39,342 bases of DNA from Escherichia phage HC12. The translations under genes and the position numbers were made by a program. Location: sequence record OL362275.1, one strand, 5' to 3'. How positions within the stretch are numbered: the first letter of the stretch is position 1; each line of letters starts with the position of its first letter. Shown here one piece after another: positions 1 to 6,698 of the stretch. The notes below the pieces were generated by a model. It did no database searches and was not told the origin of the DNA. It saw only the letters and a program-made list of their open reading frames with translations.

Positions 1-208
1 TCTCACAGTTCAAGAACCTCAAGTCTCCCCATAGGCCCTCTTTCAGTCAGACTCAAGGCCCTACCCGTTACTGCTCCTTGCAGTCACAGCCAGTCTATCA
101 TAAGGTTGGACCGATGGTCAAGACGTCAGGTCAACGATAGGTCTAGGCTATGGCTTAGGGAAGGACGATAGGTAGGGACTATTGGTCTTCTTTGAGTCTC
201 TATCTGTA
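1..208. repeat. Left genome terminus; probable copy of the direct terminal repeat
   Basis: Window starts with TCTCACAGT, the left-end sequence of T7-group genomes. No ORFs. Segment ends near TTTGAGTCTCTATCTGT, resembling the T7 terminal-repeat boundary. The second copy is not at the right end of the window, so the length is unverified. Confidence 0.35.
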
Positions 209-345
209 TAACCATAAGTCACAACCATAGGTCACAGCCTACCTCTCACAACCATAAGTCATAACCTACAGTCTCACTAACCTACAGTCTCAACCATAAG
301 ACACCAACACCTACAGTCATAGACCTACAGTTAATAGACACAAGG
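209..345. repeat. Array of about 9 imperfect 13-bp direct repeats (ACCATAAGTCAC / ACCTACAGTC units)
   Basis: Tandem near-repeats visible directly. Position matches the short repeat array next to the T7 terminal repeat (concatemer junction/packaging region). Confidence 0.6.
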
Positions 346-583
346 CTATAGACTTAAGGTCTAAGACATGTTAGTCAAAGACTATATCCTCTTACACCAT
401 GGGGCCGACGATAGCTTAATCAATATTATTTCAAATTACCTATTGACTATAGGTCCAGACTATGGCCTAATAGCTTCCGTCAACACGACACGGCAACAAC
501 CGGATAGTGAAGACGCCGGGTCATCCCGGTTAAGTAGACAGCCTGATAAGTCATACGAACAACAGGCAGATGACAGAAAGTAG

Positions 584-613
584 TTGACAAGATGTACCGA
601 CTTAAAGTAGTAT
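584..613 (+). promoter_or_regulatory. Host sigma70-type early promoter, T7 A3-like
   Basis: TTGACA at 584-589, 18-bp spacer, TAGTAT at 608-613. Flanking sequence (GTACCACAT...CTCTTTAACAATCTGG) parallels the T7 A3 promoter / R0.3 region. Confidence 0.55.
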
Positions 614-738
614 GTACCACATCAACACGAAACAACGGTGACGACCAACACTGAAACGGTCTACCTGAAGTCCTCTGACTGAAGGGAATGCTCTTTAACA
701 ATCTGGATAAACTCTTAATGTGCGCCGATAGCGACTAA

Positions 739-789
739 CTACAGGGCCTTTGAGTCTACATCTGAAGGCCCTGACTGATAGTCACTAAC
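739..789 (+). promoter_or_regulatory. Early intergenic hairpin element, RNase III-type processing site candidate
   Basis: CTACAGGGCCTTT...AAGGCCCTGACTGATAGTCACTAAC: 7-bp inverted repeat GGGCCTT/AAGGCCC followed by the recurrent CTGACTGATAG motif. Lies just upstream of the first early gene. Confidence 0.4.
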
Positions 790-805
790 TTAAAGGATGG
801 ACACT

Positions 806-1051
806 ATGAAACACTTAAGCACAATCACTAATCGCAATGAAGTATTCGTGAACACTAAAGGTTATGCGTGGATTCAGCTTAAAGAGATGACAGGAGCGCG
901 TCACCGTGTGGTAGTGCGCAAGGTATCAAGCAAGCAGTTCAGCAACTACAGCGTCGATACTGTGCGTATAGACAACGAGACATACCTGATAGACTCGCAG
1001 ATAACCGTGAGTCCTACAGTGGGCGTCTCAGCTCCTTATTTCGCTAACTGA
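806..1051 (+). CDS. Hypothetical early protein (first early gene)
   Basis: ORF 797..1051 in the track; AAAGGA Shine-Dalgarno favours the second ATG at 806. No motif recognised. Confidence 0.6.
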   Translation: MKHLSTITNRNEVFVNTKGYAWIQLKEMTGARHRVVVRKVSSKQFSNYSVDTVRIDNETYLIDSQITVSPTVGVSAPYFAN

Positions 1052-1061
1052 GAGTGATTAA

Positions 1062-1106
1062 CTACAGGTCGTTAGACTGATAGCGGCCTGACTGATAGTC
1101 ACTAAC
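1062..1106 (+). promoter_or_regulatory. Early intergenic hairpin element, RNase III-type processing site candidate
   Basis: CTACAGGTCGTTAGACTGATAGCGGCCTGACTGATAGTCACTAAC, second copy of the CTACAGG...GGCCTGACTGATAG...TAAC element, immediately upstream of the ocr-like gene. Confidence 0.4.
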
Positions 1107-1134
1107 ACATAATTAACTTTGAGAGGATATAACT

Positions 1135-1641
1135 ATGGAACGTAATGCTAACGCATACTATGAGCTGCTGGCTGCAACCGTTGAGGCATTTATCGAGCGT
1201 ATTCAGTACGACCACCTGACTCAAGATGACGACTACAGCACTGCGCTGCATGAGGTCGTAGACGGTCAGGTTCCACACTATTACCACGAGATTTTTACGG
1301 TGATGGCTGCTGATGGTATAGACAACGAGTTCGAAGACTCTTGGATGATACCTGAAACCAAGGACGTAACGCGTATCCTACAAGCTCGCATCTATGAGGC
1401 GCTTTATAACGATGTGTCTAATAGCTTGGATGTAGTCTGGTTTGAGGATGAAGAGGCAGACGAAGAGGATGAATATTGGGTAGTTGACGCTAAAACAGGC
1501 GCAATAATCATGCAAGCTGTAGCTCTTGAGGTCGCTACTGCATGTGCCAAGGTTAACTATGCGGCAGGTCGCCACCTGAAGGTGGAAGACATCAATGATA
1601 ACGTAGTGTTCGACCCTGCGGCTGAGGACTGCGAGCGATGA
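1135..1641 (+). CDS. ocr: Ocr-like DNA-mimic anti-restriction protein (gene 0.3 homolog) with C-terminal extension
   Basis: Strongly acidic. Core [45 protein letters not shown] aligns closely with T7 Ocr ([45 protein letters not shown]). Good RBS GAGAGGA. 168 aa versus 117 aa in T7. Confidence 0.85.
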   Translation: [168 protein letters not shown]

Positions 1642-1787
1642 TAACTTACGGTTTATGCCAGCACCACGTCACTAACGCCCGGCTTATGGTCAAGACCGGG
1701 CAGTTAAACCACGATGCGACTATGCGTCACCTGAAAGCGGTCTACGAGGGCCGCAAGCGTATACACGACAGTTTACACGCTAAGTGA
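1638..1787 (+). CDS. Hypothetical small protein (49 aa), start coupled to the ocr stop (ATGA overlap)
   Basis: Hand-translated ORF MITYGLCQHHVTNARLMVKTGQLNHDATMRHLKAVYEGRKRIHDSLHAK. Absent from the track (under 60 aa). No independent RBS. Confidence 0.3.
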   Translation: MITYGLCQHHVTNARLMVKTGQLNHDATMRHLKAVYEGRKRIHDSLHAK

Positions 1788-1791
1788 CAGA

Positions 1792-1835
1792 CTACAGGTC
1801 ATCAATGCTGGTGGCCTGACTGATAGGCATTAACA
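1792..1835 (+). promoter_or_regulatory. Early intergenic hairpin element, RNase III-type processing site candidate
   Basis: CTACAGGTCATCAATGCTGGTGGCCTGACTGATAGGCATTAAC, third copy of the element; AGGTCAT...TGGCCT imperfect stem. Confidence 0.4.
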
Positions 1836-1850
1836 ACTGAGAGGGAAGAT

Positions 1851-2078
1851 ATGAACACAATCACTGGTGCCATAACCAAAGGTTTTCGAGCAATTTTCGG
1901 TGAAACGCAAGAAGTATGCACCAATCATAAATTCGTACTTTCTTGCGTAGCAGGTGACGAGTTTGACGGGTTCGATAAACTGGTGGTTTGCGACCATTGC
2001 GGACAAGAGGCTATCCAACACTCAAACGGTAAATTTGAATTAATAGACGATAGCCTTACAGAAGGAGACGGCGAGTAA
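1851..2078 (+). CDS. Hypothetical early protein with four cysteines (possible zinc ribbon)
   Basis: RBS GAGAGGGAAG then ATG. 75 aa with C23, C32, C47, C50 (VVCDHCGQ). Confidence 0.65.
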   Translation: MNTITGAITKGFRAIFGETQEVCTNHKFVLSCVAGDEFDGFDKLVVCDHCGQEAIQHSNGKFELIDDSLTEGDGE

Positions 2079-2210
2079 CCTACATAAACAGGAGAGAACC
2101 AAATCATAGCTTGACCATAACACTGACGTGATGGTACTGAGTGATAGACGAGAGGTCATCGACTGATAGGTGGCCTCAAAGATTACCACTTACATTGATA
2201 GGAGTTAACT

Positions 2211-2315
2211 ATGAGCACTGCAATCATCTGGACTATCTCAGGCTTCGTAGCGTGGGGAATGTTTACTCTAGTCTGCAAACTACCGGTCCTTACTCAACTG
2301 TTATGGGGCTTATGA
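2211..2315 (+). CDS. Hypothetical small hydrophobic peptide (34 aa)
   Basis: GGAG RBS 7 nt upstream of ATG. Hand translation MSTAIIWTISGFVAWGMFTLVCKLPVLTQLLWGL. Its stop overlaps the next start as ATGA. Confidence 0.4.
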   Translation: MSTAIIWTISGFVAWGMFTLVCKLPVLTQLLWGL

Positions 2316-2515
2316 CTGTGAGTATCGCACTATTGATAGCCATAGGCTATGGACTTATCGCCTACGTGCTGGTGAGAGACATCAACAAAGCGCGTAAAGT
2401 CTACAAATTCAACTATGTACGTCTGGGTAGCTGGACTGTACGTCAACCTAACGGACGATTCATGCGTAACTTAGCGAACGTCTGGGATATAGCAACACTT
2501 GGGAGCAAACTGTAA
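2312..2515 (+). CDS. Hypothetical early membrane protein (one predicted TM helix)
   Basis: In-frame part of track ORF 2141..2515, which begins with GTG inside the upstream element. ATG at 2312 overlaps the preceding stop. Hydrophobic N-terminus MTVSIALLIAIGYGLIAYVLV. Confidence 0.5.
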   Translation: MTVSIALLIAIGYGLIAYVLVRDINKARKVYKFNYVRLGSWTVRQPNGRFMRNLANVWDIATLGSKL

Positions 2516-2841
2516 TGAACAAGTCATACGGGATTAATCTGGTACACTCTATGGACGCAGACATGCAAATGTTAAGCCTACTGGCTACCGGGTATCGTCA
2601 CGGAACGTCAAGTCACTCCGCACGTCAACAGCAGGAGCGGGACCGGGTACTGCAAGCAAGACTCCGGGCTGAGGGCCATATATACGAACTGATGAGTCTG
2701 GCGTATGGTGGACGACCAATCACTGACGATGGTAAACTTTTAGTCTCAGGCTGGAAGGCGATAGACCAACGGTCAACCATCAAGCACACGACTCATGGTG
2801 ACTTCAGTCATCTTCACGCTAACCCACTGATATGCAAGTGA
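2515..2841 (+). CDS. Hypothetical early protein (108 aa), sits where the gene 0.7 kinase lies in T7
   Basis: ATG overlaps the previous stop (TAATG). No kinase motifs seen. Last ORF before the RNA polymerase gene. Confidence 0.6.
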   Translation: MNKSYGINLVHSMDADMQMLSLLATGYRHGTSSHSARQQQERDRVLQARLRAEGHIYELMSLAYGGRPITDDGKLLVSGWKAIDQRSTIKHTTHGDFSHLHANPLICK

Positions 2842-2846
2842 TTCTG

Positions 2847-2869
2847 ACTTAACTATCACTATAGGACTC
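2847..2869 (+). promoter_or_regulatory. Phage RNA polymerase promoter (ACTTAACTATCACTATAGGACTC) upstream of gene 1
   Basis: Matches the 11-copy phage promoter family (CACTATAGG core, +1 G at 2864). Confidence 0.65.
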
Positions 2870-2938
2870 AAGGTCTAAGACTCCAAGTGAAAGACCAAAG
2901 AGACTCTAAGTGAAAGACTAATAACAAGGACTTTAAGT

Positions 2939-5620
2939 ATGAGCGTCATCTCTATTGACAAGCACGACTTCTCTGATGTGTCGAACGCCATTGAGCCGTT
3001 TAACCTACTGGCTGACCACTACGGGCAAGACCTTGCAGTCAAACAGCTTCAGCTTGAGCACGAGGCATACACTGAAGGCGAGCGACGTTTCATCAAGAAC
3101 CTTGAGAGACAGACTGAGCGAGGGGAACTGGCAGACAATCAGGTCGCCAAGCCTTTGATGCAGACTCTGGTCCCTAAGATTGCGCAAGCCGTCATGGAGT
3201 GGCACGAAGGCCTAGACGGGAAGCTGTCAACCTCGCGTCCTAGTGTAGCGTTCACCATGTTGAGCACTGAAGAGAAGGCCGTAAAGGACCGCTCTATGCG
3301 CATCTCCTGTGAGTCCGCTGCGGTTATCATACTGAAGGTCATACTCTCCAAGCTGGTCAAGCCTGAAGGGATACCGATTACACCGATGGCCTCCGCGATA
3401 GGTCGCACACTTGAGGACGAAATCCGCTTCGGTCGCATCCGTGACAAGGAGAAAGAGCACTTCAAGAAGGCGATAGCTGATAACCTGAATAAGCGGACCG
3501 GGGCGTCATACAAGAAAGCCTACATGCAAGCGGTCGAGGCGTCCATGCTGGAGCAAGGCCAACTGGAAGATGCGTGGGGGACTTGGAGTCCTACAGAGGC
3601 TGTCCACGTTGGCATCAAGATGCTCGAGATTGTCATCCAGTCAACACAACTGGTCGAGCTTAAGCGGTACGGTGCTGGCAATGCAGCGGCTGATGTAGAG
3701 ATGGTCCACCTGTCAGACTTCTGGGTCAAGAAGATGGCACAACGAGGATTCAGCCTTGCGGGTATAGCTCCAGTCTACCAGCCTTGCGTCGTTCCACCTA
3801 AGCCGTGGACTGGTGTCGTAGGCGGTGGGTACTGGGCCAAAGGACGCAGACCATTACCACTGATTCGCTTAGGGTCTAAGTCTGCGGTAGCACGCTACGA
3901 AGACGTGTATATGCCTGAAGTCTATGACGCTGTGAACATCATTCAGAATACACCTTGGAAAGTGAACAAGAAGGTTCTGGAAGTGGTGAACATGGTCGAG
4001 AAGCTGAACAACACGCCTATTGATGACATCCCTCAGATGGAACCGCTGAAGCCTGAGGACTATGCGGGTGAGACTGAAGAAGAACTCAAGGCATGGAAGA
4101 AGGCTGCTGCTGGTATCTATCGCCGCGAGAAGGCCAGACAGTCACGAAGATTATCACTGAGCTTTATCGTTAACCAAGCAAACAAGTTCTCTCAGTTCAA
4201 GGCCATCTGGTTCCCGTACAACATGGATTGGCGAGGTCGTGTCTACGCTGTCCCGATGTTCAACCCTCAGGGTAACGACATGCAGAAGGGCCTCCTGACT
4301 CTGGCAGTCGGCAAGCCTATTGGTGCTGACGGTTTCAAATGGCTGAAGGTCCACGGTGCAAACTGTGCGGGTGTCGATAAAGTCACCTTCGATGAGCGCA
4401 TCAAGTGGGTGGAAGACAACCACGAAAACATCATGGCTGCTGCTAAGGCACCGATGGATAGTATTGAGTGGTGGGGCAAGTTAGACTCTCCGTTCTGTTT
4501 CCTTGCGTTCTGCTTCGAGTATGCTGGCGTAATGCACCACGGCCTGTCTTACTCTTGTTCGCTACCGATAGCGTTCGATGGGTCCTGCTCTGGGATTCAG
4601 CACTTCAGCGCGATGCTTCGTGACCACATCGGTGGACATGCAGTAAACCTGACGCCATCCGGTAAGGTCCAAGACATCTACCGCATCGTGTCTGACAGCA
4701 TTGAGGAGGAGCTTAAAGTCCTGCTGATTAACGGCACTAACAACGAGATGGTCACTCACGAGGATAAGAAAACTGGTGAGATTACCGAACGTATCAAGCT
4801 GGGGACACGAGAGCTGGCCCGTCAGTGGCTGACATACGGTATGTCACGCAAGGTCACTAAGCGTTCAGTCATGACTCTGGCATACGGGTCGAAAGAGTAC
4901 GGCTTCGCAGACCAAGTTTACGAGGACATCGTGATGCCAGCGATTGACTCAGGGTCTGGCGCTATGTTCACTGAACCAAGCCAAGCGTCTCGCTTCATGG
5001 CTAAGATGATTTGGGAAGCTGTGAGTGTGACCGTAGTTGCTGCGGTTGACGCGATGAAATGGCTTCAGGGTGCTGCCAAGCTGCTTGCTGCTGAAGTGAA
5101 GGACAAGAAGACTGGCGAAATCCTGAAGCCATGCCTTCCGGTACACTGGGTAACACCTGATGGTTTCCCTGTCTGGCAGGAATACCGCAAGAAGGATACC
5201 ACTCGTCTGAACCTGATGTTCTTAGGGTCATTCAACATTCAGCCTACCGTCAACAGAGGTACGAAGAAAGAGCTGGACAAGCACAAGCAGGAGTCAGGCA
5301 TTAGCCCTAACTTCGTCCACTCACAAGATGGTAGCCACCTGCGGAAGACTGTAGTCCACACTCACCGCAAGTATGGCGTGATGTCATTCGCAGTGATTCA
5401 CGATAGCTTCGGGACCATACCTGCTGACGCTGAGTATCTGTTCCGTGGTGTCCGTGAGACGATGGTCGAGACATACCGCGATAACGATGTGCTGCTTGAC
5501 TTCTACGAGCAGTTTGAATACCAGCTTCATGAAAGTCAGCGCGACAAGTTGCCTGAGCTTCCGAAGAAAGGTAAACTGAATATCGAAGACATCTTGTCTT
5601 CAGACTTTGCATTCGCTTAA
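2939..5620 (+). CDS. 1: DNA-directed RNA polymerase, single-subunit T7-type
   Basis: 893 aa, colinear with T7 RNAP. Conserved blocks WFPYNMDWRGRVYAV, FDGSCSGIQHFSAMLRD, HDSFGT and C-terminal DFAFA. Specificity-loop region reads RLNLMFLGSFNIQPT. Confidence 0.97.
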   Translation: MSVISIDKHDFSDVSNAIEPFNLLADHYGQDLAVKQLQLEHEAYTEGERRFIKNLERQTERGELADNQVAKPLMQTLVPKIAQAVMEWHEGLDGKLSTSRPSVAFTMLSTEEKAVKDRSMRISCESAAVIILKVILSKLVKPEGIPITPMASAIGRTLEDEIRFGRIRDKEKEHFKKAIADNLNKRTGASYKKAYMQAVEASMLEQGQLEDAWGTWSPTEAVHVGIKMLEIVIQSTQLVELKRYGAGNAAADVEMVHLSDFWVKKMAQRGFSLAGIAPVYQPCVVPPKPWTGVVGGGYWAKGRRPLPLIRLGSKSAVARYEDVYMPEVYDAVNIIQNTPWKVNKKVLEVVNMVEKLNNTPIDDIPQMEPLKPEDYAGETEEELKAWKKAAAGIYRREKARQSRRLSLSFIVNQANKFSQFKAIWFPYNMDWRGRVYAVPMFNPQGNDMQKGLLTLAVGKPIGADGFKWLKVHGANCAGVDKVTFDERIKWVEDNHENIMAAAKAPMDSIEWWGKLDSPFCFLAFCFEYAGVMHHGLSYSCSLPIAFDGSCSGIQHFSAMLRDHIGGHAVNLTPSGKVQDIYRIVSDSIEEELKVLLINGTNNEMVTHEDKKTGEITERIKLGTRELARQWLTYGMSRKVTKRSVMTLAYGSKEYGFADQVYEDIVMPAIDSGSGAMFTEPSQASRFMAKMIWEAVSVTVVAAVDAMKWLQGAAKLLAAEVKDKKTGEILKPCLPVHWVTPDGFPVWQEYRKKDTTRLNLMFLGSFNIQPTVNRGTKKELDKHKQESGISPNFVHSQDGSHLRKTVVHTHRKYGVMSFAVIHDSFGTIPADAEYLFRGVRETMVETYRDNDVLLDFYEQFEYQLHESQRDKLPELPKKGKLNIEDILSSDFAFA

Positions 5621-5635
5621 CAGGAGGAGAAGTAT

Positions 5636-5866
5636 ATGTCAATGAAACTTGTAGCACACAACAGGACATACAACGATGGGTCGGGACGTTGCCATGTAGA
5701 GCTGACTTATAAGGATTTAGTCATTCTCCGAGACAGATTACAAGCGGGTGTGACTGGATGGATTCAACCTAACGAGTACAACCTTATAGCTTCGATTGAT
5801 GAAGTGCTTAACGCGTGGATGGAAGACGAGCGCATTCAGTATCCGTCATTCCCTCTAATTAGATAA
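5636..5866 (+). CDS. Hypothetical protein
   Basis: RBS AGGAGGAG then ATG. 76 aa ORF between RNAP and the phi1.1-type promoter. Confidence 0.6.
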   Translation: MSMKLVAHNRTYNDGSGRCHVELTYKDLVILRDRLQAGVTGWIQPNEYNLIASIDEVLNAWMEDERIQYPSFPLIR

Positions 5867-5876
5867 GGAGAGAGTT

Positions 5877-6092
5877 ATGAAATTTGCACACAAGCATACT
5901 GGCGTTAATGGTGGGACTCAAATCGTGACCGTAACAGAACACAACGGCAAGGGTCTGGTGAAGACCACGGTCATCCCTACAGAGATGTCCAAGCAGCTTA
6001 ACATCCCGTTCAAGACTCTTGTATATCTGGTCGAGTCCAGCCACGAGAAGTACCTGAAGGACGCAGTGTCCAAGCTGGGGAAGGACAAATGA
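5877..6092 (+). CDS. Hypothetical protein
   Basis: RBS AAGGAGAGAG then ATG. 71 aa ORF. Confidence 0.6.
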   Translation: MKFAHKHTGVNGGTQIVTVTEHNGKGLVKTTVIPTEMSKQLNIPFKTLVYLVESSHEKYLKDAVSKLGKDK

Positions 6093-6166
6093 CAGACATA
6101 CAGTTACTGGCCCTGTGGCTGGGAGCACTCGCAGTATTCACTTTAATCCAACGCAGAAGAGGTTAA
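6089..6166 (+). CDS. Hypothetical small hydrophobic peptide (25 aa), ATGA-coupled to the preceding gene
   Basis: Hand translation MTDIQLLALWLGALAVFTLIQRRRG. Very short, no independent RBS. Confidence 0.25.
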   Translation: MTDIQLLALWLGALAVFTLIQRRRG

Positions 6167-6167
6167 C

Positions 6168-6190
6168 CCTAAACTATCACTATAGGATTA
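6168..6190 (+). promoter_or_regulatory. Phage RNA polymerase promoter (phi1.1-like)
   Basis: CCTAAACTATCACTATAGGATTA, promoter family member, +1 G at 6185. Confidence 0.7.
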
Positions 6191-6232
6191 GACTCAAGGT
6201 CATGACTCAAAGTCGTGGCCTTCATGATTAAC
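6188..6232 (+). promoter_or_regulatory. RNase III-type processing hairpin (R1.1-like)
   Basis: TTAGACTCAAGGTCATGACTCAAAGTCGTGGCCTTCATGATTAA. Same conserved element recurs at 13046 and 36348, at the positions of T7 sites R1.1, R4.7 and R18.5. Confidence 0.55.
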
Positions 6233-6263
6233 CCTAAATAAACACTACTGGAGATTTAACCGT

Positions 6264-6443
6264 ATGTATCAGAACACTATCAACTTCGAGCGCATCCGTG
6301 AACGTCAGCAGACTGAAGGTTACATCCCTAAGGGCCGCAAGCTAAACAAGACCAAGCGTGGCGGTGGTGTCAAGGGTGCTTTCCGTAACGCTGAAGGCAA
6401 AGACTCTATGGTCAACCAAGAGAAGTATTTCGTAGGAGCGTAA
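6264..6443 (+). CDS. 1.1: gp1.1-like small basic protein
   Basis: Hand-translated 59-aa ORF MYQNTINFERIRERQQTEGYIPKGRKLNKTKRGGGVKGAF...; contains GRKLNKTKR as in T7 gp1.1. Absent from the track (under 60 aa). Confidence 0.65.
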   Translation: MYQNTINFERIRERQQTEGYIPKGRKLNKTKRGGGVKGAFRNAEGKDSMVNQEKYFVGA

Positions 6444-6446
6444 GAC

Positions 6447-6698
6447 ATGAGCAGACGTTGGGTATTCGATGCGTCAACCAGCCAGTGGTCATCGTTAGGC
6501 CGGACACACCGCGAGCTGAGTGAGGCAGGACTTGAGGTCAGAATGGATGTCCTGCCGTGCTCCGGAAAGACTCTGGTCCTAATCATTGAAGCAGACGGTT
6601 GGAGGATTCTGGTATCCCGCGAATTTACCAAAGATGAAATCTTTAGCTGTGAGCAATGGTGCTTACAACAATTGAACGCTTATAGGAGCTGGAAATAA
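6447..6698 (+). CDS. 1.2: gp1.2-like protein (in T7 an inhibitor of host dGTP triphosphohydrolase)
   Basis: RBS AGGAG. 83 aa. Immediately precedes ligase as in T7. Sequence similarity to T7 gp1.2 is only loose; the call rests mainly on position. Confidence 0.6.
   Translation: MSRRWVFDASTSQWSSLGRTHRELSEAGLEVRMDVLPCSGKTLVLIIEADGWRILVSREFTKDEIFSCEQWCLQQLNAYRSWK

Follow-up and report, generated by a model that had tools for sequence, protein, structure and literature searches.

What do the small genes that precede the RNA polymerase gene of Escherichia phage HC12 encode, and do they stand in for the gene 0.7 protein kinase, which is missing there? The window analysed is the whole sequence record of this phage (OL362275.1, 39,342 bp), a T7-like member of the genus Kayfunavirus (K1F-like) whose genome it covers completely. 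A sequence-only reading of its early region (positions 797–2841) had described, besides ocr, several unknown open reading frames (ORFs) as candidates for uncharacterised counter-defence or host-inhibition proteins. All the ORFs it listed are present, at 806–1051, 1135–1641, 1638–1787, 1851–2078, 2211–2315, 2312–2515 and 2515–2841 (these ORFs, and the promoters, hairpins, scar and gene 1 described below, lie on the + strand). All are already annotated in GenBank, and in the K1F record AM084414 the homologues of four of them bear the names gp0.2, gp0.35, gp0.37 and gp0.38. In the GenBank annotation of relatives, the named small ORFs appear as "hypothetical protein".

With a probability of roughly 75%, the region is an ordinary mosaic class I (early) operon of a K1F-like phage. 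Over segment 700–2950, the identity to Escherichia phage 6925 is 98.9% and that to LM33_P1 98%. The layout is the one that a specialist would expect of a K1F-like phage, with one useful reassignment: by its sequence, the ORF of 49 amino acids (aa) that is coupled to ocr belongs to the family of T7 gp0.4, the FtsZ inhibitor.

The ocr-coupled gene belongs to the gp0.4 family

The 49-aa ORF (1638–1787) is the homologue of K1F gp0.35 and is predicted to encode an FtsZ inhibitor. The Pfam family PF26807 (Phage_T7_GP04) is assigned to exactly this protein and to 75 of the 75 homologue clusters listed, the evidence being a precomputed Pfam hit (E-value of 1e-5 or better). A blastp comparison with T7 gp0.4 gives 37% identity over 41 aa, and the hhalign alignment of 35 Kayfunavirus-type with 11 T7-type gp0.4 sequences has a probability of 94.2% (E-value 1.1e-7, 40 columns). 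The matches to PHROG families are reciprocal: the 49-aa ORF retrieves phrog_5058, 25044 and 7202, and T7 gp0.4 retrieves 7202, 25044 and 5058. Intermediates from CR8, MP2, PP81, Ninurta, SRT7, cp31 and a Klebsiella phage link the two groups as a continuum, in which Y8 and G9 never vary and the conservation of M32, L35, K36, Y39 and K43 is 90% or higher; the intermediate from PP81 is annotated "putative cell division FtsZ inhibitor". The 49-aa protein keeps the YGL motif of T7 Gp0.4 and the equivalents of V15, V22, M32, L35, K36, Y39 and K43.

The gene also has the layout of the family, which is a product of about 50 aa and an overlap with the stop codon of gene 0.3, here via the ATGA at 1638–1641. 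In T7, the gene 0.3 stop and the gene 0.4 start meet at 1278, and the two genes likewise overlap in HC12. Thus, the coupling to ocr proposed from the sequence alone holds, but the ORF is not an unknown one, since it is a member of Phage_T7_GP04. Whether all the ORFs would match characterised T7-group early proteins had been left to be seen; part of the set does, through the 49-aa ORF. When T7 gp0.5, gp0.6 and gp0.7 were compared with the ORFs of the window by blastp, no match was found, and only gp0.3 and gp0.4 match. Sequence searches of all the ORFs against Pfam, NCBIfam and PDB gave no match except for ocr.

Two database entries are labelled with a Gram-positive or an Acinetobacter host, MT350293 ("Enterococcus phage EFA-2") and PV615262 ("Acinetobacter phage vB_Aba_01KA"). 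Both genomes belong to Studiervirinae/Kayfunavirus and carry ocr as well as a gp0.4-like gene, and the host labels look doubtful.

The predicted FtsZ and CapRel surfaces of the 49-aa protein

Kiro et al. reportedly identified T7 Gp0.4 as an FtsZ inhibitor in 2013. A mutagenesis study from 2026 (PMC13423816) found that T7 Gp0.4 needs V15, V22, W28, M32, L35 and Y39 for FtsZ inhibition, the W28L and W28A variants being inactive, and that its contacts with CapRel(Ebc), a defence protein that T7 Gp0.4 triggers, are made by A12, T14, L16, S19 and R23. In the hhalign register, the FtsZ-contact set corresponds to V11, V18, H25, M29, L32 and Y36 of the HC12 protein, with five of six residues identical, and the CapRel(Ebc)-contact set to Q8, H10, T12, R15 and K19, with none of five identical. 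The ocr-coupled ORF probably encodes the FtsZ inhibitor of K1F-group phages, the surface sensed by CapRel having diverged. The protein would most likely bind the FtsZ monomer via V11, V18, M29, L32 and Y36, blocking the assembly of the Z ring.

Infection by K1F mislocalises FtsZ and filaments the cells, in which multiple rings are seen; the 2022 study that described this phenotype (PMC9372555) called the responsible factor unknown and stated that K1F "lacks the 0.4 genes". K1F encodes the ORF after all: gp0.35 (1623–1772 in K1F) is 75.5% identical to the HC12 protein. Because K1F encodes a gp0.4 homologue, gp0.35 and its HC12 counterpart are the obvious candidates for the K1F FtsZ factor, and a block of FtsZ by this protein would explain the filamentation of K1F-infected cells. 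The published claim of a K1F without gene 0.4 (PMC9372555) is thereby corrected, and the FtsZ inhibitor that is sought as an antimicrobial lead has a concrete candidate.

One residue argues the other way. T7 W28, which is essential for FtsZ binding, is replaced by a histidine (H25) that is invariant in the HC12 lineage, and FtsZ binding is therefore not guaranteed. The homologue could have diverged to the point that it no longer inhibits FtsZ, another K1F-group protein being the one that filaments the cells. The mere 37% identity to T7 Gp0.4 also favours this explanation, and so does the variability of the gene, which is the most divergent segment in the comparison with the nearest relative (92% nucleotide identity, the flanks being 98–100% identical). 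Such a loss of activity is nevertheless rather unlikely, given that five of the six FtsZ-contact residues are identical, that M32, L35 and Y39 are conserved family-wide, and that the ratio of nonsynonymous to synonymous polymorphism (pN/pS) of the gene is 0.30. Moreover, the FtsZ phenotype does occur in K1F (PMC9372555), and E. coli FtsZ is the host target for both phages.

The HC12 gp0.4-like allele recurs at 99% identity in another phage, which points to a shuffling of gp0.4-like alleles between genomes. The 49-aa protein is also a natural variant for testing how separable the FtsZ-binding and CapRel-sensing surfaces of Gp0.4 are.

The missing kinase and its slot

The absence of a gene 0.7 kinase before the RNA polymerase gene, as first noticed in the sequence, extends to the whole genome: tblastn searches of the 39.3 kb with the gp0.7 of T7, with the 244-aa Kayfunavirus-type kinase and with the CR8 kinase gave a best E-value of about 1, and no ORF in 797–2841 has a kinase Pfam match. 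This absence is not distinctive of HC12, as K1F also lacks the kinase and its presence varies within the genus. A search with the 67-aa protein described below led to 22 related viral contigs, 8 of which encode a gp0.7 of 242–244 aa that consists of the kinase domain only; 44 phage records in GenBank contain a kinase of this type with an identity of at least 80%. The carriers include Kayfunavirus SFP21B, Klebsiella phage SAKp10309 and Enterobacter phage B1, and CR8 has a kinase at 54% identity. By this distribution, the absence of the kinase is a common cassette-level polymorphism within the genus.

The kinase-bearing relatives SAKp10309, SFP21B and B1, together with CR8, share the same layout: Ocr or SAMase, a gp0.4-like gene (absent from SFP21B), a hairpin, a slot and a second hairpin, followed on the 3' side by a small hydrophobic peptide, a 64-aa membrane protein, a 108-aa protein and gene 1. 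The content of the slot differs. In the relatives it is a 244-aa kinase, with a 41-aa gene ahead of it in all but CR8; in HC12 a 75-aa gene lies there, along with what is left of the 41-aa gene. In SAKp10309, Ocr is followed by the gp0.4-like gene and the 41-aa gene, then by a hairpin, the kinase and a second hairpin, and finally by a 29-aa hydrophobic peptide, the 64-aa membrane protein, the 108-aa protein and gene 1. The hairpins beside the SAKp10309 kinase are homologous to those beside the HC12 75-aa gene. Hairpin 3 of HC12 (1786–1835) is 80% identical to the pre-kinase hairpin of SAKp10309. Hairpin 4 (2139–2190) is similar to the pre-kinase hairpin in its 5' context and to the post-kinase hairpin in its 3' half. 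Just before this hybrid hairpin lies a deletion scar (2103–2140), which corresponds to the last nine codons of the 41-aa pre-kinase gene (NHSLTITLT*, compared with NHHSLTITLTGGY* at the SAKp10309 C-terminus). The kinase module would have gone from the HC12 lineage by hairpin-to-hairpin recombination or deletion, and the emptied slot would then have been refilled by a gene that Kagunavirus siphophages also carry. Within one genus, the gp0.7 kinase is a dispensable cassette flanked by RNase III-type hairpins, which is useful for the engineering of K1F-type therapeutic phages.

The leading gene and the Cys/His protein

The leading ORF (806–1051) is the homologue of K1F gp0.2, to which it is 96% identical. 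Its coordinates were given correctly in the sequence-only reading, but its length is 81 aa plus the stop codon, not 82 aa. An alternative ATG at 797 does not have the spacing to the Shine-Dalgarno sequence, and the homologues begin with MKH. The structural model depicts gp0.2 as a small, basic, all-beta protein. Homologues are also found in N4-like phages, in 150-kb phages and in a 141-kb contig. In this last case, an ENA contig, the homologue (4001–4240, 76% identical) lies in a long one-directional array of ORFs of 47–123 aa, one of which is T7 gp1.1-like. The presence of gp0.2 in a phage-like contig of this size suggests that small T7-type early genes circulate in large phages too.

The 75-aa acidic Cys/His protein (1851–2078, phrog_32657) occupies the slot where sister phages have the kinase. 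The family is very narrow: an exhaustive HMMER search retrieved one representative cluster among 1.84 billion and no remote relatives, and HMMER found no match of the protein to PDB or Pfam. The protein is common to Kayfunavirus podophages and to Kagunavirus siphophages of 42–45 kb, with 90–93% aa identity. In Bas70 and fEg-Eco06, the two annotated Kagunavirus loci examined, its gene comes first after a divergently transcribed regulator gene. Its pN/pS is 0.07, calculated from a small sample.

Within this very narrow family, C23, H26, C32, C47, C50 and H57 are invariant. The four cysteines (C23, C32, C47 and C50) had been described as arranged like a zinc ribbon, which is only partly right: a zinc ribbon has two metal-binding knuckles (CxxC/CxxH) some 15–25 residues apart, and there is a single CxxC knuckle here, C47-x2-C50; the other pair would be C23-x8-C32 or C23-x2-H26. 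Metal binding is a plausible property of the protein. One third-party annotation (TPA) record labels a member of its cluster "LysW". Like LysW/ArgW (PDB 3WWL), the 75-aa protein is small and acidic, matches the LVVC-x2-CG knuckle and has an acidic C-terminal tail ending in G-E; unlike them, it has a single CxxC, its tail is EGDGE and not EDWGE, and its gene lies in a phage early context with no partner ATP-grasp gene. The hhalign probability is 57% (E-value 1e-4) over 17 columns around the CxxC only, and membership of LysW is not supported.

The membrane cassette

The last three genes before gene 1 had been read as a translationally coupled trio made of a 34-aa hydrophobic peptide, a single-pass membrane protein and a 108-aa soluble protein, a description borne out by the overlaps and by hydropathy. 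The first gene (2211–2315) has a TAGGAG Shine-Dalgarno sequence, and its product has a grand average of hydropathy (GRAVY) of 1.39. The second encodes a 67-aa protein (2312–2515, phrog_2385 with an E-value of 1e-31), the homologue of K1F gp0.37. It has one N-terminal hydrophobic span (residues 3–21, Kyte-Doolittle value of 2.47) followed by a basic tail. It shares 92% identity with its K1F counterpart, and the 45 aa at its C-terminus hardly vary from genus to genus. The third (2515–2841, phrog_7066) belongs to the K1F gp0.38 family and has a 22-aa N-terminal extension. This family comprises 143 clusters, none of which has a Pfam family, and it is built on a conserved core of 84 aa with variable N-terminal extensions, giving forms of 83, 86, 108, 130 and 139 aa.

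The homologue of the 67-aa protein is called "0.6" in the K1F record NC_007456. The identity of this protein with T7 gp0.6, the MreB inhibitor, was considered and rejected: the hhalign probability is 0.4% (E-value 0.15), with merely an 11-residue TVxxP(D/N)G resemblance, and the PHROG families differ (2385 for the 67-aa protein, 8393/29241 for T7 gp0.6). Judged by sequence, the name is positional. A relation of the 108-aa family to T7 gp0.7, the C-terminal shut-off domain of the latter included, was likewise rejected (probability 0.4%).

All 25 loci examined have both the 67-aa and the 108-aa gene, in a cassette conserved ahead of gene 1. Because they always co-occur and are translationally coupled, it is proposed that the 67-aa membrane anchor may work jointly with the 108-aa protein. 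In some loci they are split by an HNH endonuclease gene. In two relatives, a gene of this type encoding 140–144 aa lies exactly between the two homologues (1386–1808 and 1404–1838, in their own coordinates), which suggests a homing site. The trio is no stand-in for the kinase, because relatives carry this cassette next to the kinase; it is a module conserved ahead of gene 1 and does not depend on the kinase.

Some of the small ORFs, chiefly that of the 34-aa peptide, might be reading frames that arose by chance in leader or intergenic RNA: no PHROG family was matched by the 34-aa ORF, a gene caller predicts in its stead an 87-aa ORF that covers its region in the frame of the 67-aa gene, and its pN/pS comes from a single diverged full-length comparator. 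This explanation is very improbable. The 34-aa peptide is present in 41 phage records, at identities down to 47% (CR8 gene 0.705), its homologues (also CR44b gene 0.41) keep the length and the KLPV-TQ motif, and its Shine-Dalgarno sequence is strong. Other phages have different small hydrophobic peptides (29 aa, 53–55 aa) coupled to the 67-aa gene at the equivalent position, and the 67-aa frame has an upstream extension that K1F does not conserve. Across all the ORFs, the pooled pairwise pN/pS, obtained from distinct full-length homologues, ranges from 0.07 to 0.47 (with small samples for the 34-aa and 75-aa genes), so that they behave as coding sequence conserved under purifying selection; for the ORFs other than the 34-aa one the range is 0.07–0.42, with dozens to hundreds of homologue clusters. 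The Shine-Dalgarno sequences are plausible across the ORFs, and stops and starts overlap at 1638–1641 and 2312–2315 (ATGA) and at 2513–2517 (TAATG).

Predicted promoters and processing hairpins

The best match to a sigma-70-type host promoter within 1–6500 is at 584–613 (TTGACA-18-TAGTAT, 10 of 12 matches). Four hairpins of the RNase III type lie between the cistrons. Hairpin 1 (728–790, −25.6 kcal/mol, z-score −5.3) is ahead of the leading ORF and has the exact 19-nt 3' arm CTGACTGATAGTCACTAAC; hairpin 2 (1052–1105) has a folding energy of −23.3 kcal/mol and a z-score of −5.7, hairpin 3 an energy of −15 kcal/mol and a z-score of −2.2, and hairpin 4 a z-score of −1.7. An exact 19-nt arm, CTGACTGATAGKCAYTAAC, is present in three of the four, for 0.02 chance matches expected. 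The four sites share GAGTGAyhrAC-nnAGG...stem...GGCCT, and in each of them an internal loop separates the lower stem from an upper stem of about 10 bp; the T7 sites R0.5 and R1 fold alike. A scan of 1–6500 against Rfam gave no match, Rfam having no family for T7-type RNase III sites. By resemblance, the four hairpins are predicted RNase III processing sites, and comparison with the relatives shows that they double as module boundaries.

By analogy with T7, E. coli RNA polymerase would transcribe the operon from about 584–613 during genome entry, and RNase III would cut the transcript into mRNAs that are monocistronic or cover a few cistrons: gp0.2, ocr with the gp0.4-like gene, the 75-aa gene, the cassette of 34, 67 and 108 aa, and gene 1. 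The region ends with gene 1 (2939–5620), which encodes a T7-type RNA polymerase of 893 aa; the Pfam families RPOL_N and RNA_pol are assigned to the identical gene in two database records. The first promoter of the phage polymerase type is just before it (2850–2866, match to TAACTATCACTATAGGA); genome-wide there are 10 matches to TAACTATCACTATAGGA, for 0.05 expected by chance. In the T7 annotation no phage promoter precedes gene 1, and only the E. coli C promoter is listed, at 3113. The promoter at 2850–2866 would let the phage RNA polymerase raise its own expression.

Comparison with T7 and K1F

The early region resembles the class I region of T7, which comprises genes 0.3–1 and the RNase III sites R0.3–R1, in its position at the left end, its host promoter, the succession of ocr and an overlapping gp0.4-family gene, its small hydrophobic peptide genes, its T7-type hairpins between cistrons and the last place of gene 1. 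It differs from it by the additional leading gp0.2, the 75-aa Cys/His gene and the three-gene membrane cassette directly before gene 1, whereas T7 gp0.5, gp0.6 and gp0.7 have no detectable homologues in HC12. One strong host promoter was found, compared with A1–A3 in T7.

The first gene shared with T7, ocr (gp0.3, 1135–1641), matches Pfam PF08684 with an E-value of 8.5e-27 and a score of 94 bits for a cut-off of 25, over residues 8–94, and belongs to phrog_2568. T7 Ocr is 46% identical to the HC12 protein. Based on its membership of the family, HC12 Ocr would block type I restriction-modification. It is 168 aa long, compared with 117 aa in T7, with an extra C-terminal segment of about 55 aa (...AAEDCER) that is common to K1F Ocr and has no assigned domain.

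With K1F (AM084414), HC12 shares the genus, the gene order and the lack of a kinase, and the identities are 96% for gp0.2, 76% for gp0.35, 92% for gp0.37 and about 85% over the core for gp0.38. K1F differs in having neither the 75-aa gene, nor its hairpin slot, nor the remnant of the 41-aa gene. It has a 55-aa hydrophobic peptide (gp0.36) in place of the 34-aa one of HC12, and its gp0.38 is the 86-aa short form. The K1F records themselves differ by small indels (2208–2271 in NC_007456): gp0.38 is broken in NC_007456 and is an intact 86-aa ORF in AM084414. NC_007456 also leaves gp0.2 unannotated.

An ordinary early operon or a set of counter-defence genes

Besides the histidine at the W28 position, three points weigh against an ordinary K1F-like early operon as proposed here. 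The models of gp0.2 and of the 108-aa protein (AlphaFold2 for the latter) have predicted local distance difference test (pLDDT) values of 69.5 and 61.8, and their fold matches are not informative. The promoter and the RNase III sites are consensus and structure matches only, the z-scores of hairpins 3 and 4 being weak; indeed, sigma-70 consensus matches are no more numerous in the region than in shuffled sequences. Finally, that the kinase was lost in HC12, rather than gained elsewhere, is based on one scar and on parsimony.

In a different explanation, the small ORFs, the 49-aa one among them, would compensate for the missing kinase by encoding new and uncharacterised proteins for counter-defence or host inhibition. 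The early position beside ocr is consistent with this proposal, as are the four families without a Pfam, NCBIfam or PDB match, the way in which gp0.2 and the 75-aa gene have spread horizontally across unrelated families of phages, and the occupation of the kinase slot by the 75-aa gene. For the whole set the odds are against it: the early block, the mobility and the four families without known function fit the candidates first proposed from the sequence, but the 49-aa ORF is of the gp0.4 family, and no direct sign of a counter-defence activity was found for any of the ORFs. Of the checks that had been recommended for each ORF, profile comparisons linked the 49-aa ORF to gp0.4, and structure predictions gave no informative fold match for gp0.2 and the 108-aa protein.

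Within the ordinary K1F-like operon, the remaining families are real, conserved accessory genes to which no function can be assigned; their behaviour as mobile early genes fits anti-defence or host-takeover roles, which would be reasonable for them. The best guess is that gp0.2, the 75-aa Cys/His protein and the membrane cassette would be binders of host factors; the function of the four families stays a guess because the models are of low to moderate confidence and the fold matches uninformative. Literature searches for functional work on the K1F gene-product names or on Kayfunavirus early or anti-defence genes found none. Three or four conserved early families can be shortlisted for screens with defence systems. 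A more ambitious combination is also conceivable, in which the 49-aa protein would be both the K1F-group FtsZ inhibitor and a natural immune-escape variant (its FtsZ face kept, its CapRel(Ebc) face resurfaced and its alleles shuffled), while gp0.2, the 75-aa protein and the cassette of 34, 67 and 108 aa would be new takeover or anti-defence families traded at the borders formed by RNase III hairpins. Taken jointly, these proposals are tentative and on the less probable side.

Flanking features

Upstream of the operon, short imperfect direct repeats between 200 and 360 (ccataagtca and cctacagtc motifs) recall the repeat arrays beside T7-like terminal repeats. A 71-aa ORF (368–583), the homologue of K1F gp0.1, lies wholly upstream of the only strong host promoter, and its gene status and expression are doubtful. 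Gene 1 is followed by ORFs of 76 aa (5636–5866, phrog_28104) and 71 aa (5877–6092, phrog_8082), the second of which is K1F gp1.1 in AM084414. A T7 gp1.1-like gene lies further downstream, at 6264–6443.

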